A stretch of DNA of 64,000 bases from positions 128,001 to 192,000 of the forward strand of contig OZ245742.1 of assembly GCA_965227295.1 (NCBI GenBank), in the 5' to 3' direction. Every line of letters begins with the position of its first letter. Position 1 is the first letter of the stretch. Of the stretch, positions 12,818-26,731 are shown piece by piece. The DNA comes from Leptonemataceae bacterium. Its GTDB lineage: Bacteria; Spirochaetota; Leptospiria; Leptospirales; Leptonemataceae. The notes below the pieces were generated by a model. That model saw only the letters and a list, made by a program, of their open reading frames with translations, ran no database searches and was not told the origin of the DNA. The position numbers and the translations under genes were made by a program.

Positions 12818-14158
12818 CTAAGCCACTAACTTCTCGTGCGCGCTGCTTAACACGGCCCCCGCCGCCGCTCGGGCCGAGGCGCAGGCCGCGTCCGCCAGCA
12901 TGCCCTCGTCGCCGGCCCAGTCACCCGCAAAAAAGATCCCCGGCACTTCGTCCCAAACCACCGCCGGCCGACCCGCGAGGCCCCCGCGCCGGTAGTCCGG
13001 CAGACCGTGGGATACAGTCATCTTCGGCAGGAACTGCTCCGCCTCGACGTCGTCCCGCCAGCCGGGGGCCAGACGATCCATAAGGTCCTCGATCTCCCCG
13101 CGCCAGGCCGCCGCATCGCCGCCTTCGGCGTGCGAAAGATACTTCGCGGCGTGCAACATGATGCGCCCCTCCGGCTGCAAGCGCGCGGCGTACGAATGCA
13201 CCGAAAAGTACAGGTTGCGATCGAAGTCCAGGGTCACGGCCGTGCGCTCGCTTAACTTAAGCAGACCCAGATCTAACGAAGCCAGCCGCGCCGGCACGAG
13301 ATCATCGAACGCGGACGGCACCGGCAAATCCCCCGCGCGCAGAATCCGCGCGATCACCGAAGGCGCACAGGCGAAGATCACGGACGCGGCGCCGTAGGCT
13401 CGACCATCGTCGCCATCGCCCGAAAGCACGAAGCCGCCGTCTACAGACCGCCGGAGCGCCGCTATGCCCGTACCTTCACGCAACTCCACGCCGGCGGCAA
13501 CAACCGCCGCGCGCAGATTCTCCACAAAACTCTGCCAGCCATGATCGACGTAGTACACCCCGCCCGCGGCCATACGCATTTGTTTGATCGCGGCGTCGGC
13601 GCTGAGTACGTCCATATCCGCGGCATAGGTGGAGAGTCTCGCAATGCCCTCGAGGAACGCGCGGGCCACGGGCGAGGCCGTGCGTCGTTCGACCCAGGTG
13701 CGAAAGCTTTCGAACCGACGTTGCTCCGGATTGTCGCGGAAGATGGCGGCATAACTTTTCAAAATACCCCACTTGTCGTGCAGACTCATGCGACCGTTCA
13801 TGAGAATCGTGGGCGCGGAGTACGGCAGATCATACAACTCCCCGCTTTGAATGAACCGACTGCCGGCAATGCCCGGCAACTTACCGGACCAGTCAATGTT
13901 CAGCTCTTCCAGGATCCGGCGCGCCGCGCCGTCTTTGTACAGGGCGTGCGGGCCGAGATTCATCACGAAACCGTTGCGTTGTTTGCTGCGCGCCCGACCG
14001 CCGACGTCCGTACTGCGTTCGAACAACGTAACCTGTCGACCGGCGCGCGCCAGGTAGAGCGCCGCCGTTAAACCGGCCACTCCGCCGCCGATCACCGCGG
14101 TGCGGCCCGGCGCGTTGCCGTTGCTTTCTAAAGATTTTTTTGAATTCCGGTGGACCAT
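12818..14158 (-). CDS. FAD-dependent oxidoreductase (phytoene desaturase/amine oxidase-like)
   Basis: AVIGGGVAGLTAALYLARAG...FERSTDVGGRA Rossmann motif; FFAGDW; GGAGG RBS before the ATG at 14158. Confidence 0.88.
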   Translation of the reverse strand: MVHRNSKKSLESNGNAPGRTAVIGGGVAGLTAALYLARAGRQVTLFERSTDVGGRARSKQRNGFVMNLGPHALYKDGAARRILEELNIDWSGKLPGIAGSRFIQSGELYDLPYSAPTILMNGRMSLHDKWGILKSYAAIFRDNPEQRRFESFRTWVERRTASPVARAFLEGIARLSTYAADMDVLSADAAIKQMRMAAGGVYYVDHGWQSFVENLRAAVVAAGVELREGTGIAALRRSVDGGFVLSGDGDDGRAYGAASVIFACAPSVIARILRAGDLPVPSAFDDLVPARLASLDLGLLKLSERTAVTLDFDRNLYFSVHSYAARLQPEGRIMLHAAKYLSHAEGGDAAAWRGEIEDLMDRLAPGWRDDVEAEQFLPKMTVSHGLPDYRRGGLAGRPAVVWDEVPGIFFAGDWAGDEGMLADAACASARAAAGAVLSSAHEKLVA

Positions 14159-14183
14159 GTTCCAACCTCCTGTCACAGCGAAT

Positions 14184-14210
14184 GTCGAAACAGGAGCGCA
14201 GACTGTGACA
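14184..14210 (-). promoter_or_regulatory. ECF41-type promoter driving the oxidoreductase-sigJ unit
   Basis: Minus strand reads TGTCACA-N16-CGAC; ECF41 consensus is TGTCACA-N16-CGTC. Confidence 0.7.
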
Positions 14211-15986
14211 TCATCCGAAAAAAAAATCACATCGTTTTTATTGAGCATGATTCTACCGCCCCTGCTCTTCGGCGCGGCCTGCTCGGGTTCTCAGGAGCGC
14301 GGCGGTGTCGACCCGGGCGAGGGCACGCCGCAGGAATCGACGAACGGTTACAACCTGGAAGGAGCGGCCTTTCGTACGCTGGAGGGCATCGTCGACACGC
14401 GCCGCAGCGGCGAGGCCTGCGAACCCGGTTGCGTCTCCGGCGACTGCGAGAACGGCGGCGGAACCTACGTCTATCCCAACTGCGCGGCCTACGCCGGCGG
14501 CTGGTCCGCGGGTCGCCGTAGCGGAGCCGGCGCGCATCTCTACGAAAACGGCGACCGGTACGCCGGCGGCTTCAAAGACGACCGGCGCGATACCAGCGGC
14601 AAGGCCGACGCCCTCTACGGCTTCGCGTCGGGGGATCGTTACAACGGCGCTTTTCGGGACGGTCGGCCCACCGGTCAGGGGACGTATACTTTCCAGGACG
14701 GCCGTGTGTTCCGCGGCAACTTCGATCAGAGCGGCACCGGCACCGGCACGCTGAGCCTGCCGGATGGCGGCAAACGCGACTGCACGTTGCGCGGCGCCGT
14801 CCTCGATTGCGCGGAGCCGGCGAAGACCACAAAGCCCGCTGAGACCGAAGCAAAGAAAACAGAGCCCACCGACAATACCTCCGCGTTCGTTCCGGACCGC
14901 GGCTACGTACTCGTGCTCTACGCCCCGCAGGATGCCGTCGTAACTCGCAACGGCAAACAGTTAAGCACCGGCGCCGGCATGGCCCTGTATCCCGGTGACA
15001 CCATCGAATCCCGGGCCACACCGGTGGAGCTCCAGGCCCGGGACGGCGTGGCCCTGCGCCTGCGTCCGTTTTCCATTCTCTACATTCCGCCGGACGCCAA
15101 TCAAAGCCGTACGCTCATTCTCCGCCAGGGCGGCGTGCTCGCGGACTACGACTCCGAAAAGGGTGATCCGCCGTTCCGCATCAAAGCCGCCGGTGCCAGG
15201 TTCGATGTGGACGGCACCACCTTCGTCGTGGAGATCGACGGCGAAAAAGGCACGGCGAAGGTCCGCGTTTTGGAGGGCCGGGTTCGCATGCGTCCGGATG
15301 TGGAAGCCCTGGAGGAAGCGCGCAAGGAAGCCGCAAAGAATCCCGACAGTCCCGAGGCCCAGGCCGCTTTGATTGCCGCCGAAGAAGCCGTCAAAGCCGC
15401 CGAGGTGAACGTCAGTGAAAACGAGGAGGCCGAGTTCGACGAGGCCGACCAGCGCCGCACGAAAGACCTGAACGAGGCCGTGCAGGAAATCCGCAACGCC
15501 CGGGAAAGCGGCGCCGACTCCGGAGCCGCGGCGGAAAGTCTAACTTCCGCCGCCGAACAGTTAAAGAATGCACCGCAGACCGAACCGAAAAAGTTCGAAC
15601 CGGACCCGCGCGAAGTCGGCGAACGTCGACTCATCATCTCGGTGGACAACGCCATCTTCAATCGCGCCCTGTCCGAGCAACGCGGCGGCAAAGAGGCGTC
15701 GGCGAGTACGCGGGATCGCGTCGGCAAGGCCTACGACGAGAGCCTGGACAAAGCCGCGAACAAACTCGAGCAAGACCTGGCCGATCCGAGCATAAAAACC
15801 CGTGAAGACCTGCTCAAACGGTACGAAATTCTGGAAATCGTTGTCTTTCGCAACGGAGACGAAAAGGCCGGCTCCATCGTCGCGCAGGCGGGAGAGATTT
15901 TGATTCTGCACGCCCTGGATGGAGTCTTCCGCGTAAATCGCGATGAGATCAAACACGTGGACTTTTTGGATGTAGAGCAGGAATAA
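14205..15986 (+). CDS. MORN-repeat plus FecR-domain lipoprotein (LipL45-like)
   Basis: GTG start 8 nt after AGGAG; lipobox FGAAC; MORN repeats; FecR-like LYPGDTIES...VDGTTFVVE...VRVLEGRV. Confidence 0.8.
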   Translation: MTSSEKKITSFLLSMILPPLLFGAACSGSQERGGVDPGEGTPQESTNGYNLEGAAFRTLEGIVDTRRSGEACEPGCVSGDCENGGGTYVYPNCAAYAGGWSAGRRSGAGAHLYENGDRYAGGFKDDRRDTSGKADALYGFASGDRYNGAFRDGRPTGQGTYTFQDGRVFRGNFDQSGTGTGTLSLPDGGKRDCTLRGAVLDCAEPAKTTKPAETEAKKTEPTDNTSAFVPDRGYVLVLYAPQDAVVTRNGKQLSTGAGMALYPGDTIESRATPVELQARDGVALRLRPFSILYIPPDANQSRTLILRQGGVLADYDSEKGDPPFRIKAAGARFDVDGTTFVVEIDGEKGTAKVRVLEGRVRMRPDVEALEEARKEAAKNPDSPEAQAALIAAEEAVKAAEVNVSENEEAEFDEADQRRTKDLNEAVQEIRNARESGADSGAAAESLTSAAEQLKNAPQTEPKKFEPDPREVGERRLIISVDNAIFNRALSEQRGGKEASASTRDRVGKAYDESLDKAANKLEQDLADPSIKTREDLLKRYEILEIVVFRNGDEKAGSIVAQAGEILILHALDGVFRVNRDEIKHVDFLDVEQE

Positions 15987-16001: not shown

Positions 16002-16060
16002 CCAGGTTTTTCAGACTCTCCGGATTGGGAAAATCGTATACGTCGATCTGCCCGATGCGG
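16002..16060 (-). repeat. 59-bp remnant copy of the flgG-like gene (second copy at 25357-25415)
   Basis: 52/59 nt identical; encodes RIGQIDVYDFPNPESLKNL versus RVGRIDVYDFPNPEGLKNL. Confidence 0.85.
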
Positions 16061-16171
16061 TTTGCGGGGGTTCGCAGCCGGAAATTGGTTGTCACGCGAC
16101 CCGCGCAGAACCATGCCGCTATCGTGAAACCTGATAGCATCCGGCATGAGTCTGTCCGGAAAGCCATCCTC

Positions 16172-18268
16172 GTGAAACCTCCATCGCTGACTGCCGGACT
16201 GAGCCGGGCCGCGCGGAGCCCGCACTTCTGGGCGGTAACCATCATTCTGGGCAAGGTCCTGGTCTGCCTGCCGTTCTCTTCAGACTACGTCGACGTTTTG
16301 TTCTACCCCTTTCTGGAGACCTTCGTGACGGGAATCCTCGCAGGTCAGCCCGTCAATCCATGGGCTGCCTCGATCGCCACGTTGCCGGATGCGTTTCCGT
16401 ACCACCCCGGGATGCTCTACCTGTACGGCGCGGCGATCCTGCCCACCGGGCTGCTGCCGGGGAACCTGCTCTGGCTGAAGTTGTGGTTCGTCCTGCCCGC
16501 CGCCGCAGCCGACGCCATGATCCTGTTCACGCTGCTGCGGTTCTTCCCGGAGCGACGCTGGGCGATCAACATCCTCTATGGTCTTTCGCCGATCCTCTTC
16601 TACTCCATCTACCTGCACGGTCAACTGGACCTGTGGCCCACGGCGCTGCTCTTTCTGTCGTGCTACTTCCTGATTCGACGCGGGCCGGTGGGAGCGGCGG
16701 TCCTGATGGGACTGGCCGTCTCCATGAAGCTGCATGTGGCGGCTGCTCTGCCACTGATCGTCGTGTTTCTCTATCGTCGCCGGGGGCTGTTGCCCACCGC
16801 TCGGTTCCTGCTCGGATTCGGATTAACTTTCGGTGTGTTGAGCCTACCGTGGTACCTGGATGAATCCTTCCGTGGGATGGTACTGCAGAACCCCAAGCAA
16901 GACCTGTTGTTCCAGGCGGCACGCCTGGAAAATGGACAGGATCCGCTCTACATCAGCCTCCTCGTCATCCTGCTCATCTACATGCGGTTCTTCGCCTACC
17001 GCAAGATCAATGCCGACCTCTTCTTCAGCTGGATGGCCTGCCTCTTCGCGGTCTTCGTGCTGATCATCCCTCCGGCGCCCGGCTGGTACGCGTGGATAGT
17101 CCCGCTGCTGACCTACTTCTACCTGAAATTCGTGAGGAACGACCGACACCTGCTGTACCTGAGCGGCTTTCTCGCCGCGGCGTACCTGGCATACTTCGTG
17201 CTCGTCTGGCAGGGAGACTACGTGGACCTCGCATTGCTCGGGGAGCCGCTGCAATTCAAGCTGACTTCGATCCGGACCGGCGGTGTGCTGTATACCGTCC
17301 TGCAGGCGGCCTTGCTGGCCAACCTGCTGTATGTATACCGCTTCGGCGTAAGATCGAACGCAATCTACCGGCGCCCCGGCCCGATCCTGATCGGCATCGG
17401 CGGAGACAGCGGCGCGGGCAAGTCAACGCTGAAGCAGAGCTTCCACAGGCTGCTCGCTCCTTCGATTACGACGCTGGAGGGAGACGCCGAACATCGCTGG
17501 GAACGGGGTGATCCAAACTGGGACGACTACACCCACCTGAACCCGCGCGCCAACTTTCTCAGACGTCAGGCGGACTTTCTGCACCGCCTCAAGACAGGCG
17601 AGGCGATTCTGCGCAGCGACTATCAACACAGTACCGGTCGCTTTTCTCCGGCACGCTTCATCCGCCCCGCCGACTTCATCATTCTGAGCGGCTTACACCC
17701 GTTCTATCTGCCGCGCATGCGCAAACTGATCGACATCAAGATATTTCTCGATACGGACGAACCCCTCCGTCGCCACTGGAAGATCCAGCGCGATCACGCC
17801 CAGCGCGGACACCCCATCGCGAAAATTGAAGAGCAGCTCCGTACGCGCGCTCGCGATGCCGAACGGTTCATTCACCCGCAGAAAGGATTTGCGGATATGG
17901 TCATCGAGTACCGGCCCGCGGGAGACCTGAGCCCGGAGCGCGAGCTTTCACCGGCAGACTTGCGCCTGCGGATTACTCTACAGGCCGACCTGCATATTGA
18001 GGAAATGGTGCACGAGATGGAGAAGGAGTCGTGGCTGGAGGAATGGGATTACCTGGACAGCCTGCGCGGGCAGTTCTTTTCCTTCGCAGGCGCACCCGGG
18101 CCGGAGCAGCTTCAATCTTTTGCGCGACGATTTGTCGACAGCTACACGGACCTCTTTCCTTCCGAACCGCACTGGGACGCAGGGTATCCAGGCATCATCC
18201 AGTTGTTCGTGGTCGTGATGATCGATCACTGCCTCAAGGAGGCTCCGAATGAGGCAACGGCGCTTTGA
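16172..18268 (+). CDS. Fusion of a GT-C (GT87-like) membrane glycosyltransferase and a phosphoribulokinase/uridine kinase domain
   Basis: N-terminal multi-TM region with SSDY, FPYHP, HGQLD; C-terminal IGIGGDSGAGKST, GLHPFY, WKIQRDHAQRGH, FIHPQKGFAD; start uncertain (16025-16172). Confidence 0.82.
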   Translation: MKPPSLTAGLSRAARSPHFWAVTIILGKVLVCLPFSSDYVDVLFYPFLETFVTGILAGQPVNPWAASIATLPDAFPYHPGMLYLYGAAILPTGLLPGNLLWLKLWFVLPAAAADAMILFTLLRFFPERRWAINILYGLSPILFYSIYLHGQLDLWPTALLFLSCYFLIRRGPVGAAVLMGLAVSMKLHVAAALPLIVVFLYRRRGLLPTARFLLGFGLTFGVLSLPWYLDESFRGMVLQNPKQDLLFQAARLENGQDPLYISLLVILLIYMRFFAYRKINADLFFSWMACLFAVFVLIIPPAPGWYAWIVPLLTYFYLKFVRNDRHLLYLSGFLAAAYLAYFVLVWQGDYVDLALLGEPLQFKLTSIRTGGVLYTVLQAALLANLLYVYRFGVRSNAIYRRPGPILIGIGGDSGAGKSTLKQSFHRLLAPSITTLEGDAEHRWERGDPNWDDYTHLNPRANFLRRQADFLHRLKTGEAILRSDYQHSTGRFSPARFIRPADFIILSGLHPFYLPRMRKLIDIKIFLDTDEPLRRHWKIQRDHAQRGHPIAKIEEQLRTRARDAERFIHPQKGFADMVIEYRPAGDLSPERELSPADLRLRITLQADLHIEEMVHEMEKESWLEEWDYLDSLRGQFFSFAGAPGPEQLQSFARRFVDSYTDLFPSEPHWDAGYPGIIQLFVVVMIDHCLKEAPNEATAL

Positions 18269-18998
18269 TGTTTTGTTCCTGGACCTCGACGATACGCTGT
18301 ACGACTACAGCACTTGCCATGCGGCCGGACTGGCGTCACTGCTGGATTTGACGGTAGAGCGCTTCGGCATTCCGCGGAGCGAGGCCGAGCAGTCCTACGA
18401 ACAGGGGCGCCGGAACACGAAATCCCGCCTGCACGGCGCCGCCGCTTCCCACCATCGACTGCTCTACGCCCAATCCATGTGCGAACTGGCGGGCCGACCG
18501 GTCGTCCCCAACGCCCTGGACCTGGAAGAAGCGTACTGGGCGGCCTATCTGAAGTCCATGCAACTGCGACCGGGCGTAACCGAGTTTCTGCGCTGGGCCC
18601 GCGAAGCCGGCTACCGCCTCGGCTTGATCACGGATCTCGTTGCCTCCATTCAATTTCGGAAGTTGCGCACGCTCCAACTGGACACGGTTCTGGACACCAT
18701 CACCACAAGCGAAGAGGCCGGCGTCGAAAAGCCGGACCCCGGCATTTTTTCCCTTGCTCTGGCCAAGACGCGTGGCATTCCCGAACGATCGCTCATGATT
18801 GGGGACAATCTGACAAAGGATGTGCGGGGCGCTCTGGAGAGCGGCCTCAGTGCGGTGCATTTCGTTCCTGACCATCGGCCCGGCGAGAACGGGGACGCGG
18901 TCGTCGAGGATTCGGGCTTTCTGACCCACGGCGACTTTCGGACGCTGGCCACCGTGCTCACCGACTGGGAGGCAGGGTCGTCTGCGCATGACGCCTGA
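18249..18998 (+). CDS. HAD-family phosphatase
   Basis: FLDLDDTLY, EKPDPGIF, MIGDNLTKDVRGA. Confidence 0.9.
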   Translation: MRQRRFDVLFLDLDDTLYDYSTCHAAGLASLLDLTVERFGIPRSEAEQSYEQGRRNTKSRLHGAAASHHRLLYAQSMCELAGRPVVPNALDLEEAYWAAYLKSMQLRPGVTEFLRWAREAGYRLGLITDLVASIQFRKLRTLQLDTVLDTITTSEEAGVEKPDPGIFSLALAKTRGIPERSLMIGDNLTKDVRGALESGLSAVHFVPDHRPGENGDAVVEDSGFLTHGDFRTLATVLTDWEAGSSAHDA

Positions 18999-20028
18999 GA
19001 GCAAACAGGCCCTCAGCGAACTCTGCCGCGTGTCCCGGCGGGCGGGGGAACGAGCCGACCTCGTCCAGGCGGGGGGTGGGAATTCCTCATGGAAGGACGC
19101 AGGTTACATGTGGATCAAGGGATCCGGCCTCCGCCTCTGCGATATCTCCCCCGAAAACGGACTGGCCCAGGTCGACAACGCACAACTGCTGGAAGGCCTG
19201 AGCAGCACCGCCTGGGCCGGAATGGATCGTCGCGCGCGCGAAAGTGCAGCTCAGGAACTCGTCCAGTCGGCTTCCTCAGGAGCGGTGCGGCCCTCGATCG
19301 AAACCGTGATGCACGCCCTGCTGGGCGAGTTCGTGTTGCACACCCATCCCACGGCCGTGAACGCCGCATTCAACAATCGCTCCGCCGCACAGCGGGCCGC
19401 GGACTGGCTCCCGGATTGCACCTATGTGGAATACCATACGCCGGGCATCGACCTGGCCCTCGCCGTCGGGCAGCGGAGCCAGCAGGATGATCCGCCGCAG
19501 TCGCCGCGGACGTTTCTGCTCGGCAATCACGGCCTCCTGGTTTCGGCGGACTCGGCCCAGGCAGCATTTGACGAAACCGAGCGCGTTTGCGACCTCCTGA
19601 ACGAACGGCTGGGCCTGGGAGCGGCGGCCGAAAAGATCTGTAACCAGATCTCCGGTTACCTGGAGGCCCTCACCGGCGAGGACCGGGTCACCATCCACAC
19701 GGAAGACACGCTCCCCTGGCCCGAGGAGCTCCGGCCCTTCTTTCCGGATGCGGTCGTCTTTCTGGGGGCGGGGCCGCTGGTCACGGAATCACCCCACCTG
19801 GAAAGCAGCGTCCGGAATTACTTCTCGGAGCACGGCATTCCACCGCGCATGTTGCGCGTGGATGGCCGCAACTATTTCTCCGGCAGCAGTTACGCGCGGG
19901 CCAGGGACGGCGCCGAGGTCTGGCAACTGCACGCCCTGGCAGCCCGCTTCGGTCCGGAAGCACTGCCACCGGAAGAAGTGCGCTACCTGTCCAACTGGGA
20001 AGCCGAGAAATATCGGCAAAGGATGTAA
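18988..20028 (+). CDS. Class II aldolase/adducin-family protein (sugar-phosphate aldolase or epimerase)
   Basis: GGGNSSWK, IKGSG, PSIETVMH, LHTHP, LLGNHGL metal-binding motifs. Confidence 0.88.
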   Translation: MTPESKQALSELCRVSRRAGERADLVQAGGGNSSWKDAGYMWIKGSGLRLCDISPENGLAQVDNAQLLEGLSSTAWAGMDRRARESAAQELVQSASSGAVRPSIETVMHALLGEFVLHTHPTAVNAAFNNRSAAQRAADWLPDCTYVEYHTPGIDLALAVGQRSQQDDPPQSPRTFLLGNHGLLVSADSAQAAFDETERVCDLLNERLGLGAAAEKICNQISGYLEALTGEDRVTIHTEDTLPWPEELRPFFPDAVVFLGAGPLVTESPHLESSVRNYFSEHGIPPRMLRVDGRNYFSGSSYARARDGAEVWQLHALAARFGPEALPPEEVRYLSNWEAEKYRQRM

Positions 20029-20033
20029 GGCGG

Positions 20034-21611
20034 ATGCAGATTGTCGTACCGATGTCCGGCACCGGCCAGCGCTTCCTGGCCGCGGGGTACTCCAGGCCCA
20101 AACCCCTGATCGAAGTTGAGGGTCGGCCCATCATAGCGCACGTCGTAGACATGTTTCCCGGCGAATCCAACTTCCTTTTCATCTGCAACGAAGAGCACCT
20201 GGAACAGACGAACATGGCCGGGGTGCTGGCGGACATCGCCCCCTCCGGCAGGATTGTCTCCATCCCGGCGCACAAGCTGGGTCCGGTCTACGCCGTCAGC
20301 CGGGCCTTCGACTTTATATCAGACGATTCTGAAGTAATCGTCAACTACTGCGACTTCGGCAAGGCCTGGGACTATGCGGGCTTCCTTTCCGACCTCAGAG
20401 GCAACTCTGCCGACGGCGGAATCTCGGCCTACACCGGCTTTCACCCCCACATGCTCGGTACGACTAACTACGCCTTCATGCGGCACGAAAAGATGTGGAT
20501 GCAGCAAATTCAGGAAAAGCAGCCGTTCACCGACGACCGCATGAGTGAGTACGCCTCTGACGGTACGTACTACTTTCGCACGGGGGCCATCCTCAAGCAG
20601 TACTTCCGGCTGCTCATGGAGCGGGGGCTGGATCTCAACGGCGAATACTACGTGAGCATGGTCTACAATCTGCTCGTGGAGGCGGGGCTCTCCGTTCGTT
20701 TATTTCCCATCGAGACGATGCTCCAGTGGGGCACGCCGGCCGATCTGGAAGAGTATCAGTACTGGTCGCACTTATTCCGACTGATTGCGCGAGAAGCCGG
20801 GCGGCCCGCACCGCCGCCATCGTCGCAAATCAACCTGATCCCGCTTGCAGGGCGTGGTTCCCGGTTTGCCAATGAGGGCTACGAACTCCCGAAGCCGTTG
20901 ATACCGGTCGACGAGCAGCCGATGGTCGTTCACGCCGCACGCTCGCTGCCGCCCGCCACCGAGCATGTCTTCGTTTGTCTGGCCGAACACCTGGCAAAGT
21001 TTCCGCTGGAAGGGGCCTTGAAGCGGGCCTTTCCGGATGCGCGCATCGTTTCCATTGGCGAGGTCACGGAAGGACAGGCGGTCACGGTGGGCCTCGGTCT
21101 TCGCAAACAGGACGCGGATCTACCGCTGCTGATTGGCGCGAGCGACAATGGCATGATCTACGATCATGCAGAGTTCCTGCGCGCGACCCAGGATCCCACC
21201 GTGGACGGCATCGTGTTCACCTGTGTCGGCCTCCCCGGGGCCGCCAGACAACCTCACATGTACGGTTGGGTTCGGCACGAGTCGGGCACGGTAACGGGCG
21301 TCTCGGTGAAGCAACCGATCTCGGACAACCCGGCCGCGGACGACGCCATCGTGGGGTGCTTCTACTTCCGTACGGTCCGAACCTACGAACGGGTGCTGTC
21401 GGAGCTTACGGCTCGCAACATCCGGGTGAACAACGAGTTCTACGTGGACTCCATGATTGGCCTTGCGGCTGAGATGGGACTGAAAATCGTGGTGCTGCGG
21501 GTGGAGGCCTACCTCTGCTGGGGCACACCGGATGAATACCGAACCTACCTCTACTGGCAGCGCTTCTTTGCCGGAGTCGAGTGGCACCCCTACACCGGCC
21601 CTCGCCCGTGA
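20034..21611 (+). CDS. Tandem two-domain sugar-phosphate nucleotidyltransferase
   Basis: IVVPMSGTGQRF...PKPLI...WGTPADL and NLIPLAGRGSRF...PKPLI...WGTPDEY. Confidence 0.88.
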   Translation: MQIVVPMSGTGQRFLAAGYSRPKPLIEVEGRPIIAHVVDMFPGESNFLFICNEEHLEQTNMAGVLADIAPSGRIVSIPAHKLGPVYAVSRAFDFISDDSEVIVNYCDFGKAWDYAGFLSDLRGNSADGGISAYTGFHPHMLGTTNYAFMRHEKMWMQQIQEKQPFTDDRMSEYASDGTYYFRTGAILKQYFRLLMERGLDLNGEYYVSMVYNLLVEAGLSVRLFPIETMLQWGTPADLEEYQYWSHLFRLIAREAGRPAPPPSSQINLIPLAGRGSRFANEGYELPKPLIPVDEQPMVVHAARSLPPATEHVFVCLAEHLAKFPLEGALKRAFPDARIVSIGEVTEGQAVTVGLGLRKQDADLPLLIGASDNGMIYDHAEFLRATQDPTVDGIVFTCVGLPGAARQPHMYGWVRHESGTVTGVSVKQPISDNPAADDAIVGCFYFRTVRTYERVLSELTARNIRVNNEFYVDSMIGLAAEMGLKIVVLRVEAYLCWGTPDEYRTYLYWQRFFAGVEWHPYTGPRP

Positions 21612-21960
21612 ACTATTCAGCTTTCTGCTGGCCGGCGGCAGCGCGGTGGCCACGGACATGGGCACCTATTTCCTGCTGCTCCTGTGGCTCAGCCATTCTC
21701 CGGCCAAAGCGATTTCGTTCATCCTGGGTTCCGGTGTCGCCTACATCCTCAACAAGATCTTCACGTTTCGCAAACCGGGGCGCTCCGCGGCCGAGGTTGT
21801 CCGCTTTGTGGTTCTTTACACGATTACACTGGGAGCCAACGTCCTCGTGAACAAGGCCTGCCTGCTCCTGTCTCTGCCGGAACTCCTGGCCTTTCTGTTT
21901 GCCACGGGAACCTCTACCGTGCTCAACTACCTCGGGCAAAAGTTTTGGGTATTCAAATGA
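21532..21960 (+). CDS. GtrA-family flippase
   Basis: Four short TM helices; ATDMGTY, AYILNKIFTF, NYLGQKFWVF; start uncertain because it overlaps the upstream gene. Confidence 0.88.
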   Translation: MNTEPTSTGSASLPESSGTPTPALARELFSFLLAGGSAVATDMGTYFLLLLWLSHSPAKAISFILGSGVAYILNKIFTFRKPGRSAAEVVRFVVLYTITLGANVLVNKACLLLSLPELLAFLFATGTSTVLNYLGQKFWVFK

Positions 21961-22655
21961 AGACATGCACTGTCGTGATTCCGTGCTACAATGAGGAGCC
22001 GAACATCCCGTTGATCCTCGAGCGCTTTGCAGAGGTCCTGGACGAATCGGGCATTGAAATCCTGCTCGTCGACAACGGCTCCACGGACAACTCCCAGGAA
22101 GTAATCCGCTCTCTGCTTCCGTCGTACAAATTCGCGCGCTCGCTGCACCTCATGCCCAACCGCGGGTACGGGGGCGGCATTCTGGCGGGCCTGCAAACCG
22201 TTAAGACACCGCTGCTGGGTTGGACCCATGCCGACATGCAGACCGACCCCTACGATGTAGTCCGCGCAGTCCGACTCATGGAGCAGGCGGGCAGCGACGA
22301 TGTCTACGTCAAGGGCAAGCGACGGGGGCGACCACTGTTTGACGTTTTCTTCACCGCGGGGATGTCGCTCTTTGAGAGCATCTACATGGGCCGGCGCCTG
22401 CAGGATATCAACGCACAACCGAACATCTTTCCGCTGTCATTCTTCCGGCAATGGGAGAACCCACCGGACGATTTTTCTCTCGACCTGTACGCGCTGTATG
22501 TCGCGCAGAAGAAGGGGCTGGACGTCATTCGCTTTCCGGTTACGTTTCCGCCCCGCCTCCACGGCAGTTCCAGCTGGAACACCGGTATGGCCTCCAAGTG
22601 GAAGTTCATCAAGCGGACTGTCGCTTTCAGCATCAAACTGAAGCGGAGCCTATGA
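21957..22655 (+). CDS. GT2 polyprenyl-phosphate glycosyltransferase (DPM1/GtrB-like)
   Basis: VVIPCYNEE, VDNGSTD, NRGYGGGI, HADMQTDP. Confidence 0.9.
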   Translation: MKTCTVVIPCYNEEPNIPLILERFAEVLDESGIEILLVDNGSTDNSQEVIRSLLPSYKFARSLHLMPNRGYGGGILAGLQTVKTPLLGWTHADMQTDPYDVVRAVRLMEQAGSDDVYVKGKRRGRPLFDVFFTAGMSLFESIYMGRRLQDINAQPNIFPLSFFRQWENPPDDFSLDLYALYVAQKKGLDVIRFPVTFPPRLHGSSSWNTGMASKWKFIKRTVAFSIKLKRSL

Positions 22656-23272
22656 TGAAGTTTATCGCCCACCGGATCAATACAGTGACCGAGCTCGTAA
22701 CGGTGCCGGTAGAGTACGGTGTCGAGCTGGACCTGCGGGATGGCGAATCGGAACTGATTCTGGCCCACGATCCCTTCAGCCCCGGGGAACTGTTTCGGGA
22801 CTACCTCGAGCAGTACCGCCACGGTACGATGATCGTGAACTGCAAAAGCGAACGGATCGAGATTCGGGCCCTCGAACTGCTCCACGAGTTCGGGATCGAC
22901 GACTTCTTCTTTCTCGATAGTTCCTTTCCCATGATCTACCTGCTTTCCAGGCAGGGCGAGTTCAGGCAGGCCCTGCGCCTGTCAGAATTTGAAAAGATCG
23001 ATACACTATTGACGATGCAGGGGAAGGTGGATTGGGCCTGGGTCGACTGTTTCGAACGGTTCATTCTCACCGCCGAATCGTCCCGTCGGCTACGAGACGC
23101 AGGCTACCGAACCTGCCTGGTGTCGCCGGAACTCCAGGGACGCCCGGAAGACATTGAGCAGCACGCCGAACAGATCGTGGCAAATTCGCTGGACGTCGAT
23201 GCCATCTGTACGAAGCTGCACAACATCTCACGCTGGCAGACCGCGCTGGGGCTGGACAACCGGAACGCATGA
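22652..23272 (+). CDS. Small GDPD/PI-PLC-like phosphodiesterase
   Basis: FIAHRIN, GVELDLR, LAHDPF, IVNCK, WVDCF, LVSPELQG, AICTK. Confidence 0.75.
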   Translation: MMKFIAHRINTVTELVTVPVEYGVELDLRDGESELILAHDPFSPGELFRDYLEQYRHGTMIVNCKSERIEIRALELLHEFGIDDFFFLDSSFPMIYLLSRQGEFRQALRLSEFEKIDTLLTMQGKVDWAWVDCFERFILTAESSRRLRDAGYRTCLVSPELQGRPEDIEQHAEQIVANSLDVDAICTKLHNISRWQTALGLDNRNA

Positions 23273-23297
23273 GGTGCGCGCCCCACATGGTCACTCC

Positions 23298-25088
23298 ATG
23301 AAGCGGTCTTCACTTAACTCCAGAATAATGCAGCGCTTTTGGATAGTGTCTTCCAGGCTTTCCGTACTGAGCGGATTTATGGTGCTTCTGGTCGCCGGCC
23401 TGTACGTCTGGATGACGTTTCTTGAACCCCGCCCGTATTCCATCATCCTGACAGATGTCGAGGTGGACTACTACTACAATGCGCGCCTTGCACACCAGGG
23501 ATTGCCGGTAGCCGGCATTCACCACCCGGGAACTCCGATCCAGTTTCTTGGGGCTTTGATCCTTGCGACGGTCGGAGCGGACATTGCGCTGGCCCAGAAT
23601 TTCTTCAATTTTGCCTATTTAGTATTGGCTGTTCTTACCATCCTCGCGCTTTTCTTCTTTGTTCGTACGACGCTGAAGGATCTCCCCCCGGGAGTCGCCT
23701 TCCTTGCCCTGGCGACCGTCGTCGCATGGCCAACCTTTTCATTTTACCTGAACAAGTTCGGTGCGGATGCCTTTGTCGTTATCTCCGGGTTGCCGGCCAT
23801 CACCTTTTTCTGGCGAGCACTGGGGAAAGAACTTATCCCTCGCTACCGCCATTTGTTCTTGTGCGGCGCTTTTGTCGGCCTTTCGCTTGCGATCAAGATG
23901 TCTTTCGTGCCTCTTGCAGTGGCCCTGCTCGCCGGATGCATGATCAGGGGGCTCATCGCTTTTTTCTGCTATCTTTCAGAAGGTGGACGGCTGGCCGGAT
24001 TCTGGCGCTTTGCTTTGCTTCCCCTGGCGATGCCTGCCGGAGCATGGCTCACGTACAAACTCTTCACTTTGCCGATTCATGAGCGCGTCCCCGACATCTG
24101 GAATGAGAGGCTCGGTGGCTCCGGACTTACTTTTGGCTTACGGGAGATGGCGGAACGGGCCGGCGATGTTCTTTTGGCCATGGCGACAGCCAACTGGCTA
24201 TTGGTTTGCGTATTGATCGCGATCGTCTGCGTTTTTCTTTTTTGCGTTTGTGCGCTTGTATACCGATCCTTCTCGTCTGGTATCCGCGGCACGCTGCACT
24301 CTATCACCAAAGAGCGTTTCGATCATTTGTCCGGCGCAGCTTTCTTGCTGATTGCGTTGCCGGCTGTATTGCTCTTGCTGGCGACCGAAGCCACCGCCAC
24401 GAGGACTGCCGTCGTCGCGGTAGGACAGGGCTTGCGCAACGTTTTTCCGGTGGCCCTGGTTTTCCCCTTTGTGATCGTTTTTTGCTGGCGGACATACTTT
24501 GTGCATCGAGATGGTTTTTTGATTCGCAATAAATTCTTCCAGCCGGCATTGCTCGTCATCAGCCTCTTAGCCATCTCACTAACAGTCTCCGTGTTTCTAA
24601 GGGAACGGCATGGCTTCATGAATCTCCATGCGAAACGGATAGAAAACGCGCAGAAAGCGATCATGCAGAGCCTTCTACCGGGAACGAGGGTGGCGGTCTG
24701 GGATGGAACGGCGTTGCATGCGCTGGGTGAAGTCTCATTTCATTGGTGGGGTAACTACAGATACGCGCGCAGCTCCTTTGATGCTGACATAGGATCAGCG
24801 TATCCATCCTTTACCCAATTCCGGCTGTTGGATCTGGTCGCTCGTTTGAGAGAAAAGCAGGATTCGAATACGGCGACGACGATGGAACTCATCGCCATGC
24901 AAAGGCACGGGGACCCGGTTTCGATGATTGCAATTCCAGTAGTGGAACTGGAGAGTAGCCTGGCCAGCACAACCAGCGATCCTGTGCACAGATTCATTGA
25001 GTTCGCGGAAGGGCATTACGAAGTACAGGAACACTGGAAGCAGTCGATCAACGATGTGGACTGGATTTTCGTCCGTCTGAAGTGGTAA
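23298..25088 (+). CDS. Multi-pass membrane protein, probable GT-C (ArnT/PMT-like) glycosyltransferase
   Basis: About 11 TM segments; first-loop TDVEVDY and HHPG; LSLAIKMSF; more AT-rich than upstream genes; start at 23298 inferred. Confidence 0.65.
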   Translation: MKRSSLNSRIMQRFWIVSSRLSVLSGFMVLLVAGLYVWMTFLEPRPYSIILTDVEVDYYYNARLAHQGLPVAGIHHPGTPIQFLGALILATVGADIALAQNFFNFAYLVLAVLTILALFFFVRTTLKDLPPGVAFLALATVVAWPTFSFYLNKFGADAFVVISGLPAITFFWRALGKELIPRYRHLFLCGAFVGLSLAIKMSFVPLAVALLAGCMIRGLIAFFCYLSEGGRLAGFWRFALLPLAMPAGAWLTYKLFTLPIHERVPDIWNERLGGSGLTFGLREMAERAGDVLLAMATANWLLVCVLIAIVCVFLFCVCALVYRSFSSGIRGTLHSITKERFDHLSGAAFLLIALPAVLLLLATEATATRTAVVAVGQGLRNVFPVALVFPFVIVFCWRTYFVHRDGFLIRNKFFQPALLVISLLAISLTVSVFLRERHGFMNLHAKRIENAQKAIMQSLLPGTRVAVWDGTALHALGEVSFHWWGNYRYARSSFDADIGSAYPSFTQFRLLDLVARLREKQDSNTATTMELIAMQRHGDPVSMIAIPVVELESSLASTTSDPVHRFIEFAEGHYEVQEHWKQSINDVDWIFVRLKW

Positions 25089-25156: not shown

Positions 25157-26731
25157 TCAACAGTGTGTCCCGCCCAGCGCGCAGGCAAATTCGATCCGGC
25201 GTGCCGTGGTCCGCATCTCCGTACGCAAAGCCTCAGGGCGAACGTTACTCGTTTCGAGAAATTTTTGAAGAATACCCGGCGCGCCGTCACAGGCCGGGCT
25301 CACAGGTATTGCCGGCCCCGACTCCGGTGTTTCCAGAAAATACGCGGGATGGGTGACCAGGTTTTTCAGGCCTTCCGGATTGGGAAAATCGTACACGTCG
25401 ATCCGCCCCACGCGGACCTGCTCCGGCGTGTCGCCGGCCTTGATCGACACTTCACCGCTTTTGCTGATTGTGAAGGACGCGAGCCTTCCGCCGGACGGCA
25501 GGATGATCGGAGGTTCCAGGGGACGACCGCGGGCATCCACAAGCTGCTGCTTGCTATCAATTTTAAGACGACCGTCCCGGGTGTAAGCCGATCCACCGCC
25601 GGGCAGGCGTATTTTGAAGAAACCGTTCTCCGCCGTCAGGGCCAGGTCGAAATGATTTCCGGTGGCTTTCAGAGAGCCCATGCGAAAATCCCGGGTGATG
25701 CGTGCACCATTCTCCGTGGCCTGGATTGAGAGAGCTTTGTATCCCGGGGTTCGCTCATGAGCCGCGTTCTCCGCATGCACCTCCATCGCTCTCGTAAGAT
25801 ACGCGGTCCAGGCCTGAAAGATTTCCGGTGCCGGCAGGCCGGCCGAAAACACCGGACGATCATCCAGTTTGCCGGCCGCCGCTCGCAGCGCGTCGCGTAA
25901 GTTCAAGAGTGCGGTAATGCGCACGGTCTCGCGGTCGAAGCGAACGTTGCTCTCCTCCACAAATCCTTGCAGCATTCTTTCTCCGGATCGGTGCACGCGA
26001 TCCGGAGAAAGAAACGTATCGATCACGCCGATCGAGGTAGGTTCGATCTCATCACGGCGATGAACACTCACCGTCCCGTTTTTATCGATGCGCAGAGTAT
26101 GCGATGCGGCGTCCACCGGCAGTACGATGTACGGATCGAGAAGATGTCCGTTCCGATTCACGACCTCGCGTTTCCGGTTCAAGAACAATCGTCCCTGACG
26201 TTCATAGGCGAAGTTCCCATCGGGCAGGATCACTCTCAACAAGCCGTTTCCGCGAAGGGCGATGTCCAGCGAACGACCTGTGGAACGCAGAGGACCGGGC
26301 GCAGGATCGACGGACTCCGCGCCCTGGAGTATGCGGCGCAGTTCCGCCGCAGCCAGGTCCGGTCTTGCATCGGCCCGCGCGCGAGACCAATCGAAGGTTC
26401 GCCGCCGGTAACCGGGACGATCCAGGCCACGGAGATTCTGCCAGCCCAGTTCGACTTGAAAATCAACGATGCTTAAGGCCAGCAGCAAGCGCGGAAGATC
26501 CCCCGGCTCCGGTTCAAGCATTTGCGGCACGCCTGCGTACGCAAAGACGTCGCCGAGCATGGCTCGATCGTTTTCGGCAACGTCGTCCAGCATGAGTCGC
26601 ACGCCCGCCCGAGGAGCAGCCGGCCCGCCGGACACGGTTACGAAAAACAGAAACGCAAGGACGGCCTTACGCAACAACCACGCCGGCCGACGGTCACGCT
26701 TTCCCCGGGGCCGCAAAGAAGCATTCATCAT
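25157..26731 (-). CDS. Tandem FlgG/FlgF-like flagellar rod-domain protein with signal-peptide-like N-terminus
   Basis: Two copies of TGxxxDxAL..G..F....P.G..AY.R.G and ExSNV; AENAAHERTPGYK resembles the ANNLANxxTPGFK motif. Confidence 0.75.
   Translation of the reverse strand: MMNASLRPRGKRDRRPAWLLRKAVLAFLFFVTVSGGPAAPRAGVRLMLDDVAENDRAMLGDVFAYAGVPQMLEPEPGDLPRLLLALSIVDFQVELGWQNLRGLDRPGYRRRTFDWSRARADARPDLAAAELRRILQGAESVDPAPGPLRSTGRSLDIALRGNGLLRVILPDGNFAYERQGRLFLNRKREVVNRNGHLLDPYIVLPVDAASHTLRIDKNGTVSVHRRDEIEPTSIGVIDTFLSPDRVHRSGERMLQGFVEESNVRFDRETVRITALLNLRDALRAAAGKLDDRPVFSAGLPAPEIFQAWTAYLTRAMEVHAENAAHERTPGYKALSIQATENGARITRDFRMGSLKATGNHFDLALTAENGFFKIRLPGGGSAYTRDGRLKIDSKQQLVDARGRPLEPPIILPSGGRLASFTISKSGEVSIKAGDTPEQVRVGRIDVYDFPNPEGLKNLVTHPAYFLETPESGPAIPVSPACDGAPGILQKFLETSNVRPEALRTEMRTTARRIEFACALGGTHC

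Follow-up and report, generated by a model that had tools for sequence, protein, structure and literature searches.

Which sugar would be built, activated and exported by a cluster of eight co-directional genes in Leptonemataceae bacterium (Spirochaetota), and by what chemistry? The cluster lies on the + strand of the 64,000-nucleotide (nt) stretch that we analysed (the window: GenBank assembly GCA_965227295.1, contig OZ245742.1, positions 128,001 to 192,000 of the forward strand), in open reading frames (ORFs) that together span window positions 16025–25088. We assigned the window's proteins to families with Pfam and NCBIfam models and their cut-offs (Table 1). An earlier description made without database searches (the sequence-only reading) had named eight + strand genes at 16172–25088 and proposed that they attach an unusual ketose; the ORFs, the family models and a fold model confirmed the genes and their identities. 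Our overall reading, in which we have about even confidence, is that these genes form a mobile module that glycosylates targets outside the cytoplasm, by way of a lipid carrier, with a sugar derived from a pentulose.

When a single genome of each species was scanned, 186 relatives of the double nucleotidyltransferase (NT) gene came up, and we fetched the loci around the best 80 of the 186. Many of the 80 are interrupted by contig ends, so counts of loci refer, unless stated otherwise, to the 41 with at least 6 kb on either side of the NT gene. Homologues within loci were detected by tblastn (E ≤ 1e-5; 87 loci) and BLASTP. The phosphoribulokinase (PRK)-type kinase, HAD phosphatase, aldolase-fold, NT, GT2 and GDPD-like genes were all present in 29 of the 41 loci (42 of the 80 overall), and in those 29 the six genes share one strand within 6.5–11.4 kb. 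This arrangement is far beyond chance. Co-occurrence elsewhere, whose absence the sequence-only reading had named as telling against it, is thus found. Gene order differs among loci, the kinase fusion coming last in Flavobacteriaceae, and the core consists of the first seven genes plus a variable GT-C-like partner.

The loci come from at least seven phyla (Spirochaetota, Campylobacterota, Bacteroidota, Pseudomonadota, SAR324, Bdellovibrionota, Bacillota and Cloacimonadota). Complete loci were found in Leptospira, Campylobacterales, many Flavobacteriaceae, SAR324, Kangiellaceae/Oleispira/Allohahella, Jeotgalibacillus, Fusibacter and other Clostridia, Bdellovibrionota and Cloacimonadota, and partial ones in Omnitrophota, Chlamydiae, TM6/Babeliales, Melainabacteria, Planctomycetales, Actinobacteria and Elusimicrobia.

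The first protein combines an N-terminal polytopic membrane domain of about 390 amino acids (aa) with a C-terminal kinase domain (PF00485 match at residues 455–634 of the long ORF), and the two are joined in 37 of the 38 loci that have the kinase. Against the Protein Data Bank (PDB), the kinase matched cyanobacterial PRKs (6kev, 6hzk) at about 124 bits and plant PRKs at 108 bits, whereas true uridine and uridine-cytidine kinases reached 45–57 bits. Its motifs D-x-x-H-x-x-x-R, Y-x-H-x-T-G, G-L-H-P and W-K-I-Q-R-D-x-x-x-R-G-H match those of Synechococcus PRK (6kev/6hzk) position by position in the alignment; we take these motifs to serve binding of D-ribulose 5-phosphate (Ru5P) and catalysis. 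The PRK motifs were invariant among 25 sequences of the fusion, as were D114, D153 and K186 of the membrane domain. By homology, the kinase is PRK-type rather than a PRK equivalog, and it is the sole PF00485/PRK-family product of the genome. A Calvin-cycle role was ruled out, as we found no RuBisCO large subunit in the 5.94-Mb single-contig genome (93.6% complete).

For the HAD phosphatase, the best NCBIfam model was ribulose-1,5-bisphosphate 5-phosphatase, with the next model at 111.9 bits, and the same model was best for 12 of 12 HAD homologues from other phyla (143–182 bits; 13 of 13 with the window protein). A ribulose 1,5-bisphosphate (RuBP) 5-phosphatase and a ribulose-1-phosphate aldolase have been characterized in haloarchaea, according to the accessible part of PMC9700705. 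Given the PRK likeness and motifs, the best HAD model and the lack of RuBisCO, the sequence Ru5P to RuBP to ribulose 1-phosphate (Ru1P) is well supported by homology. The proposal that kinase and phosphatase together yield a pentulose 1-phosphate, already part of the sequence-only reading, is strengthened by the PRK scores (about 124 versus at most 57 bits), the retained motifs and the uniform phosphatase model.

The third enzyme would act on that product. Its PF00596 match covers the N-terminal 200 of 346 residues, and the nearest NCBIfam models were the N-terminal domains of bifunctional rhamnulose-1-phosphate aldolase/dehydrogenases, which are ketose 1-phosphate enzymes. We compared a structure model (predicted local distance difference test score, pLDDT, 93.5) with the PDB and obtained, with matches confined to residues 1–210, Z scores of 26.0 for 3m4r, 19.7 for FucA, 19.4 for YgbL, 17.4 for RhaD, 16.7 for MtnB/APIP and 15.8 for AraD. 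E105, H118, H120, H181 and a GGGN(S/T)S loop were invariant in 28 sequences; presumably these correspond to the Glu and three-His metal site and the phosphate site of FucA. The gene is absent from two loci that are otherwise full for the soluble genes and GT2 (L037 and L039, where GtrA likewise went undetected) and from a third (L042), and no module gene was found that could use dihydroxyacetone phosphate (DHAP) or glycolaldehyde. For these two reasons we favour a tailoring epimerase that would act on pentulose 1-phosphate by retro-aldol and aldol steps. Inversion at C4 would turn D-ribulose 1-phosphate (3R,4R) into L-xylulose 1-phosphate (3R,4S), by stereochemical reasoning; the enzyme may instead be a C3 epimerase.

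The two halves of the NT are paralogous (31% identical to each other, E 3e-45). Both carry the G-x-G-x-R-F ... P-K-P-L signature, invariant in 14 sequences across phyla, and full-length homologues in other phyla are 54–70% identical. Since the signatures and many further invariant residues are kept across phyla, both halves are probably active. A profile of the double NT gave distant GlmU/4evw matches in the PDB, and no substrate could be assigned to either half from them.

The 206-aa product of gene 7 matched no NCBIfam model, and neither it nor any of the 29 aligned sequences (the window protein plus 28 homologues; mean column identity 63%) matched a Pfam family at E ≤ 1, PF03009 included. 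Searches of the PDB by sequence, with the single protein and with its profile, gave chance-level matches. Its AlphaFold model (pLDDT 95.4) placed it more clearly: the top Foldseek matches were glycerophosphodiester phosphodiesterases (GDPDs; 7e0v, 1zcc, 3ks6, 3qvq and GlpQ 5t91; E 1e-6 to 1e-5, TMq 0.65–0.74), with class II phospholipase D (PLD)/sphingomyelinase D (SMase D) structures ranking lower. H7, R8, E25, D27, H39 and K65 were invariant in all 29 sequences, and we take H7/R8/E25/D27/H39 to be the GDPD-type catalytic pattern (His-Arg ... Glu-x-Asp ... His). The E. coli homologue is named 'PI-PLC/GDPD family protein' by PGAP. A search of the profile against 1.84 billion representatives recovered 1,896 proteins at E ≤ 0.001, 1,144 at E ≤ 1e-10 and 313 at E ≤ 1e-30 (clusters at 50% identity), so these proteins form a sizeable, unnamed phosphodiesterase family outside Pfam.

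Fusion partners bear on the role of this phosphodiesterase. We classified 120 listed longer relatives by architecture: 95 were GDPD-NT2 fusions (NT2, the double NT), one was NT2-GDPD, five were GT2-GDPD, 17 carried an N-terminal extension of about 185 aa and two a C-terminal extension, one of these being a WecG/TagA glycosyltransferase. All but one of the 17 N-terminal extensions have a pair of H-phi-T/S-phi motifs, the exception being a GT61 domain. The Pfam models 2_5_RNA_ligase2/LigT, which stand for the 2H phosphoesterase superfamily, scored these paired-motif extensions at 16–26 bits in three proteins (cut-off 27) and at 30.2 bits in P0349. Known 2H phosphoesterases open 2',3'-cyclic and ADP-ribose-1'',2''-cyclic phosphates. 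Among the representatives we also found GDPD-like fusions to GT61 (three), to an inositol-monophosphatase-family domain (one, P0327, where that domain possibly replaces HAD) and to GT87 plus PRK (one, P0326).

By this evidence, the NT-GDPD fusions tie the phosphodiesterase to the nucleotidyltransferase, the 2H-GDPD fusions suggest a cyclic phosphodiester intermediate, and fusions to the Leloir families GT61 and WecG/TagA suggest that the end product is a nucleotide sugar. The sequence-only reading had an NT domain and the phosphodiesterase move the phosphate through a cyclic phosphate. The pairing gains indirect support from the NT-GDPD fusions (96 of 120 listed), and a cyclic-phosphate step from the 2H-GDPD fusions (16 of 120 listed); the cyclic-phosphate route to a nucleoside diphosphate (NDP)-pentulofuranose is itself a step that we infer. 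As a separate observation, 2H-GDPD fusion proteins of about 380 aa include P0150, P0154, P0167, P0226, P0238, P0349 and the product of L088 1010–2152, and nine further loci from the 2H-GDPD search match the GDPD part only.

Delivery of the sugar would fall to the remaining genes. GtrA adjoins GT2 in the loci, on either side depending on the locus, and the two are fused in L072. The GT2, which lacks the membrane helices of ArnC/GtrB-type enzymes, scored 48.3 bits against the ArnC model (cut-off 529) and 38.5 against PgfS (cut-off 500), its best NCBIfam models; its homologues are 50–74% identical in 74 of 87 loci. We predict that it is a polyprenyl-phosphate glycosyltransferase partnering GtrA. 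The membrane domain of the kinase fusion remains below the GT87 cut-off of 25 in the window protein and exceeds it in homologues (29.5 bits in Paenibacillus locus L019 and 39 bits in P0326); by language-model features compared with protein clusters (Atlas likeness), it falls among GT87 clusters (0.97–0.98). The GtrA match, with the probable GT2 and GT87 assignments, supports the three-component logic put forward in the sequence-only reading.

The second GT-C, which that reading had counted as a member of the cluster, proved to be a variable accessory. The eighth protein has about 11 hydrophobic segments and resembles Atlas PMT_2 clusters (0.98–0.99), a likeness that we treat as a lead; it had no Pfam match, no homologue by tblastn in the 87 loci, and no similarity to the last gene of an E. 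coli plasmid module described below (best E 1.2). Comparable places in other loci hold unrelated polytopic proteins with PMT_2, PMT, DUF6798 or YfhO matches. By analogy, the eighth protein is probably a GT-C of the PMT_2/ArnT type on which the choice of acceptor depends. An acceptor shared by all lineages may fall to the conserved GT-C domain, and lineage-specific acceptors to the variable GT-Cs. In seven Flavobacteriaceae loci (L014, L020, L022, L028, L032, L033 and L085), a gene for a TylF-type O-methyltransferase (PF05711, 43.8 bits; L014 11721–12434) stands between the NT and GT2 genes, a site that GtrA takes in other loci, which suggests a methylated form of the sugar.

Assembled into a pathway, these parts would work as follows. 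The PRK-type domain would phosphorylate Ru5P to RuBP, and the HAD enzyme would take off the 5-phosphate to leave Ru1P. Removal of that phosphate frees O5, and in no other way could a pentulose form a furanose ring. The aldolase-fold enzyme would then epimerize the product through a metal-bound enediolate, most simply at C4 to give L-xylulose 1-phosphate; we assign it this tailoring role because the metal and phosphate sites are intact in a fold of ketose 1-phosphate enzymes.

The double NT and the GDPD-fold enzyme, judged by their fusions, would next work jointly to convert the 1-phosphate to a true glycosyl donor. An NDP-1-pentulose would come from one NT half, the phosphodiesterase would let the anomeric O2 displace the nucleoside monophosphate to give a 1,2-cyclic phosphate that is opened to the 2-phosphate, and the second NT half would make the NDP-pentulofuranose. 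A second half and a phosphodiesterase would be needed because C1 of a 2-ketose is not the anomeric carbon. In some lineages, the fused 2H cyclic phosphodiesterase would open the 1,2-cyclic phosphate. NDP-sugars with a cis hydroxyl cyclize chemically, and class II PLD and phosphatidylinositol-specific phospholipase C (PI-PLC) catalyse such cyclizations. Nucleotidyl transfer to a non-anomeric ketose phosphate is documented for CDP-6-D-fructose, made from fructose 6-phosphate (available part of PMC10918830). By analogy with three-component systems, GT2 and GtrA would load the sugar on polyprenyl phosphate and bring it across the membrane, where the GT87-like GT-C domain and variable GT-Cs, such as the eighth protein, would transfer it to surface acceptors.

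Several contexts bear on mobility. An E. coli isolate from human stool carries a 33-kb plasmid (NZ_CP145712.1; L098 4986–17325) on which an eight-gene module lies between two IS26 copies, one of them frameshifted, and encodes NT, GtrA, GT2, a PI-PLC/GDPD protein, a 660-aa 'uridine kinase', HAD, a class II aldolase and a 586-aa hypothetical protein. An identical segment is present on a plasmid of a second E. coli, a bullfrog isolate; the segment looks like composite-transposon-like cargo. Searches by blastn with an Oleispira NT gene and by megablast with the plasmid module found it in two of 5,426 complete E. coli genomes, plasmid-borne in both. On plasmid p5 of Azospirillum brasilense, the module stands beside ABC-transporter genes, gmd, GT1, GT4 and a methyltransferase, the sole O-antigen-like locus that we saw.

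Of 40 genomes related to that of the window, two have the GDPD-like gene (three of 41 with the window's own), and the same two have the full-length NT gene; neither of the two genomes of the same genus, each about 93% complete, yielded the GDPD-like gene. One 1.9-Mb relative carries a split version of the NT as two adjacent genes, 40% and 29% identical to the two halves (G004:C1:1025232-1026790; L004/L007), next to HAD and GT2 genes, and the GDPD-like gene was not found in that genome. Judging from these contexts, the module is self-contained, horizontally mobile and accessory among relatives. A distant double-NT-like gene, annotated as GT2 and 26–29% identical over 506 aa, follows a HAD phosphatase gene on a Rhizobium rhizoryzae plasmid (L099 8375–10485); the surrounding region, the one that we read, lacks the rest of the module. 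The gene recurs on 14 other plasmids of Rhizobium, Sinorhizobium, Azospirillum and Tropicibacter and may be part of a distinct, though related, system.

A number of points weigh against the pentulose reading as a whole. None of the module members has a known reaction, product or glycan, and for ketoses we know of no case in which phosphate moves from position 1 to position 2 by way of a cyclic phosphate. The substrates of the first two enzymes are assigned by likeness: the kinase, at 185.7 bits, does not reach the cut-off of PRK07429 (236), and the HAD score is below its model's cut-off of 330. The aldolase-fold enzyme keeps a Glu where FucA has its catalytic Glu, and may be a true aldolase; its C-terminal 135 residues (about 211–346) had no convincing fold match in the whole-protein model (best Z 4.7). 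GtrA was detected by BLASTP in just 20 of the 41 loci, although the protein is short and divergent and was probably undercounted. L088 (8.9 kb, 18% G+C), the one readable 2H-GDPD locus, shows no other core gene within 8.8 kb. By Pfam annotation, no lipopolysaccharide (LPS) or cell-wall genes lie beside the module in the window. At two of 5,426 genomes in a DNA-level search, with serotypes not known, the module is also not an obvious source of the xylulofuranose (Xulf) in E. coli O95 and O97.

How else might the same genes be read? One alternative, which we consider unlikely, keeps the logic and makes the product an aldopentofuranose (D-arabinofuranose or D-ribofuranose). Isomerization of Ru1P would yield an aldose 1-phosphate, from which one NT half would form an NDP-aldopentose, leaving auxiliary roles to the other half and the phosphodiesterase; the result would be a DprE1/2-independent route to polyprenyl-phospho-arabinose or -ribose. 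The NT superfamily, going by Pfam and NCBIfam names, mostly takes aldose 1-phosphates, and GT-Cs of the GT87/Emb/Aft type use polyprenyl-phospho-pentofuranoses. The core, however, contains no aldose-1-phosphate/ketose-1-phosphate isomerase of the MtnA/eIF2B type, class II aldolase-fold enzymes are not known for that isomerization, and the conserved second NT half and the NT-GDPD and 2H-GDPD fusions would be left without explanation. In its favour, D-arabinofuranose polymers are reported from bacteria beyond the actinomycetes in the accessible text of PMC8707391.

Improbable in our judgement is a second alternative, in which the module stops at a 1-linked NDP-pentulose, comparable to CDP-6-fructose, CDP-ribitol and CDP-glycerol, and installs pentulose phosphate as a teichoic-acid-like substituent. 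The GDPD-fold protein would then be a phosphotransferase or an editing diesterase, and GT2, GtrA and GT-C would handle a common sugar. GDPD-fold enzymes do act on polyol-phosphate diesters, with GlpQ among the fold matches, and the module occurs in the Gram-positives Paenibacillus, Jeotgalibacillus, Virgibacillus and Fusibacter. Yet a single NT domain would do for such a product, and both are conserved; the core has no LicD/TagF-type phosphotransferase; the exchange of a 5-phosphate for a 1-phosphate would go unexplained; and the seven genes travel together, suggesting one linear pathway. In its favour, nucleotidyl transfer to a non-anomeric ketose phosphate is documented, again, by CDP-6-D-fructose from fructose 6-phosphate (PMC10918830, in its available part).

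A very improbable third alternative sees the kinase as a uridine/cytidine kinase and the HAD enzyme as a pyrimidine nucleotidase, which, in support of an otherwise ordinary three-component system, would adjust nucleotide pools or convert some nucleoside-like substrate. PF00485 includes both kinase types, and the best PDB match of the kinase, 9qkn (129.9 bits), is titled 'Uridine kinase'; that entry belongs to a deposition series with cyanobacterial PRKs, and a literature search on the origin of 9qkn/9qko returned nothing relevant. PGAP calls the E. coli homologue 'uridine kinase', and the second and third NCBIfam models for the HAD enzyme are CTE7 and the pyrimidine nucleotidase YjjG. Against this, NCBIfam uridine kinase models scored 67–69 bits on the kinase versus 185.7 for PRK07429, in line with the PDB scores and PRK-type motifs described above; RuBP 5-phosphatase was the top HAD model in all 13 proteins; and a kinase and a nucleotidase acting on one nucleoside would form a futile cycle. 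We give hardly any credence to a catabolic bypass (Ru5P to RuBP to Ru1P to DHAP and glycolaldehyde) that happens to neighbour a glycosylation operon of separate function. In its favour, these three types of reaction do end the haloarchaeal non-carboxylating pentose bisphosphate pathway (PMC9700705, accessible part), and the FucA-like Glu is kept. Against it, the kinase is covalently joined to a GT-C domain in 37 of 38 loci, P0326 joins GDPD, GT87 and PRK, all three genes keep synteny with NT2, GT2 and GDPD in different phyla as well as on the IS26-bounded segment, and spending ATP on Ru5P to reach DHAP would make no catabolic sense where a pentose phosphate pathway exists.

Read as a pentulose pathway, the module resembles several known systems in part. 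In three-component systems (GtrA/GtrB/GtrX of Shigella phages, ArnC/ArnT and CsbB/GtcA/YfhO), a GT2 polyprenyl-phosphate glycosyltransferase, a GtrA-family protein and a GT-C are encoded together, as they probably are here; acceptor specificity in the module is likewise probably determined by its variable last GT-C, after the pattern of gtr clusters. Those systems use housekeeping UDP-sugars, whereas the module has five dedicated donor-synthesis genes; its GT2 is also short (232 aa) and split from the membrane part, and a GT-C is fused to the first kinase of the pathway. The NDP-heptose pathway shares phosphorylation at C1, removal of the distal phosphate by a HAD enzyme (GmhB) and nucleotidylation. 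There, C1 is anomeric, one NT suffices and the kinase is GHMP/PfkB, whereas the module has a non-anomeric C1 and a PRK-type P-loop kinase. With class II PLD/SMase D, PI-PLC, 2H enzymes acting on Appr>p, and PhnP, the common ground is the GDPD/PLC TIM-barrel and His/Arg/Glu/Asp/His set of the module enzyme; unlike them, it falls outside all Pfam families, and its proposed substrate (an NDP-1-ketose or a ketofuranose 1,2-cyclic phosphate) is known for none.

Two published pathways also bear on the chemistry. The haloarchaeal pathway (PMC9700705, accessible part) has a RuBP phosphatase and a Ru1P aldolase; the module likewise pairs a HAD enzyme closest to RuBP 5-phosphatase with a class II aldolase-fold enzyme, implying conversion of RuBP to Ru1P and then action on Ru1P. 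The haloarchaeal pathway obtains RuBP from nucleosides through R15P isomerase and is catabolic, whereas the module would obtain RuBP from a PRK-type kinase and feed its product to nucleotidyltransferases. Both module enzymes score below the curated cut-offs and are not classed as equivalogs. The D-fructose-6-phosphate cytidylyltransferase HS5.18/Mnp1 (available part of PMC10918830) belongs to the NT superfamily seen here and activates its ketose at a phosphate that is primary and non-anomeric, a precedent for the first NT step that we propose. The CDP-6-D-fructose formed is reduced to CDP-glucitol or CDP-mannitol, a polyol-phosphate donor, whereas the module has no reductase, a doubled NT and a phosphodiesterase. 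We regard the module as a probable three-component system for glycosylation, served by a donor pathway of its own that is novel.

Within the window, the module genes are tightly packed: five of the seven junctions overlap (by 20, 11, 80, 4 and 4 nt), and the other two are gaps of 5 and 25 nt. For gene 1, a start at the GTG at 16172 is likely and yields a protein as long as its homologues; the GtrA start codon is uncertain, as its ORF overlaps the 3' end of the NT gene by 80 nt. A scan for promoters and terminators was uninformative (1 promoter-like site versus 3.2 expected; 13 terminator-like sites versus 9.2 expected). Both flanks appear functionally unrelated to the module. The FecR-domain gene directly upstream is not conserved with it, and the best NCBIfam match of its product, the Leptospira lipoprotein LipL45, is far below cut-off. 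On the other side, a FlgE-like gene converges with the module and overlaps a SNF2-family helicase gene by 4 nt; this odd pair appears to be translationally coupled.

Table 1. Genes of the module and its flanks in the window, with family evidence and, for core components, presence among the 41 well-flanked loci.
Feature	Position	Strand	Evidence	Loci
FecR-domain protein with MORN repeat	14100-15986	+	LipL45 80 bits	
GT87-like GT-C + PRK-type kinase fusion	16172..18268 (ORF open from TTG 16025)	+	PF00485 121.6 bits; GT87 16.3 bits	PRK 38/41; membrane domain 37/41
HAD-IA phosphatase	18249..18998	+	PF00702 78.3 bits; NF053830 177.9 bits	34/41
Class II aldolase-fold metalloenzyme, 346 aa	18988..20028	+	PF00596 60.6 bits	37/41
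Tandem double nucleotidyltransferase	20034..21611	+	PF12804 in two stretches; PF00483 in first half	
GtrA-family small membrane protein	21532..21960	+	PF04138 80.3 bits (cut-off 26.1)	20/41
Short GT2, 232 aa	21957..22655 (true start about 21957)	+	PF00535 77.7 bits (cut-off 23.3)	38/41
GDPD/PLC-fold phosphodiesterase, 206 aa	22652..23272	+	Predicted fold; no Pfam/NCBIfam family	35/41
Accessory polytopic membrane protein, 596 aa from ATG 23298	23298..25088	+	Atlas likeness to PMT_2; no Pfam match	
524-aa protein	25157-26731	-	Two FlgE/F/G D1 domains	
SNF2-family helicase, 1008 aa	26728-29754	-		

Xylulofuranose is known from E. coli O95 and O97, C. jejuni RM1221, Eubacterium saburreum T15 and Devosia submarina (accessible parts of PMC8707391, PMC7685785 and PMC11380512) and from chlorovirus N-glycans (PMC9614988). 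In Yersinia enterocolitica O:10, L-Xulf forms a side branch on a D-rhamnan, and the paper, in its available part, names no donor genes (PMC11380512); genes for NDP-Xulf were not found in E. coli O-antigen clusters, as far as the accessible part of PMC7685785 goes. Our searches for xylulofuranose, ribulofuranose and nucleotide-xylulose, which covered literature other than subscription journals and supplements, returned structural reports and reviews and no biosynthetic route, and found no published description of the gene set or of a nucleotide-pentulose route; PMC12409901 contained nothing of relevance. We put forward, tentatively and as the less probable outcome, a general route to nucleotide-activated pentulofuranoses (NDP-xylulofuranose or NDP-ribulofuranose) in which a ketose 1-phosphate is nucleotidylated, cyclized by a GDPD-fold enzyme, opened to the 2-phosphate and nucleotidylated again by a second NT, and which would be the source of xylulose in O-antigens and capsules.

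For the activation of non-acidic 2-ketoses for glycosyl transfer in bacteria, the module offers a concrete enzyme set of six soluble activities, present in many culturable non-pathogens, among them Paenibacillus, Flavobacterium, Azospirillum and Jeotgalibacillus. A new phosphodiesterase family comes to light with it, as does the unusual joining of a GT-C to the kinase that opens the pathway to its donor, and the module could explain the origin of rare xylulose in bacterial glycans. Ketofuranosides are lost under the mild acid used for O-antigen release, and because of this lability pentulose decorations may be widely overlooked. Such decorations would have consequences for serotyping, for immune recognition and for the receptors that phages use. 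If the general route put forward above is real, acid-labile pentulose decorations would be far commoner on bacterial surfaces, across at least seven phyla, than structural studies show.

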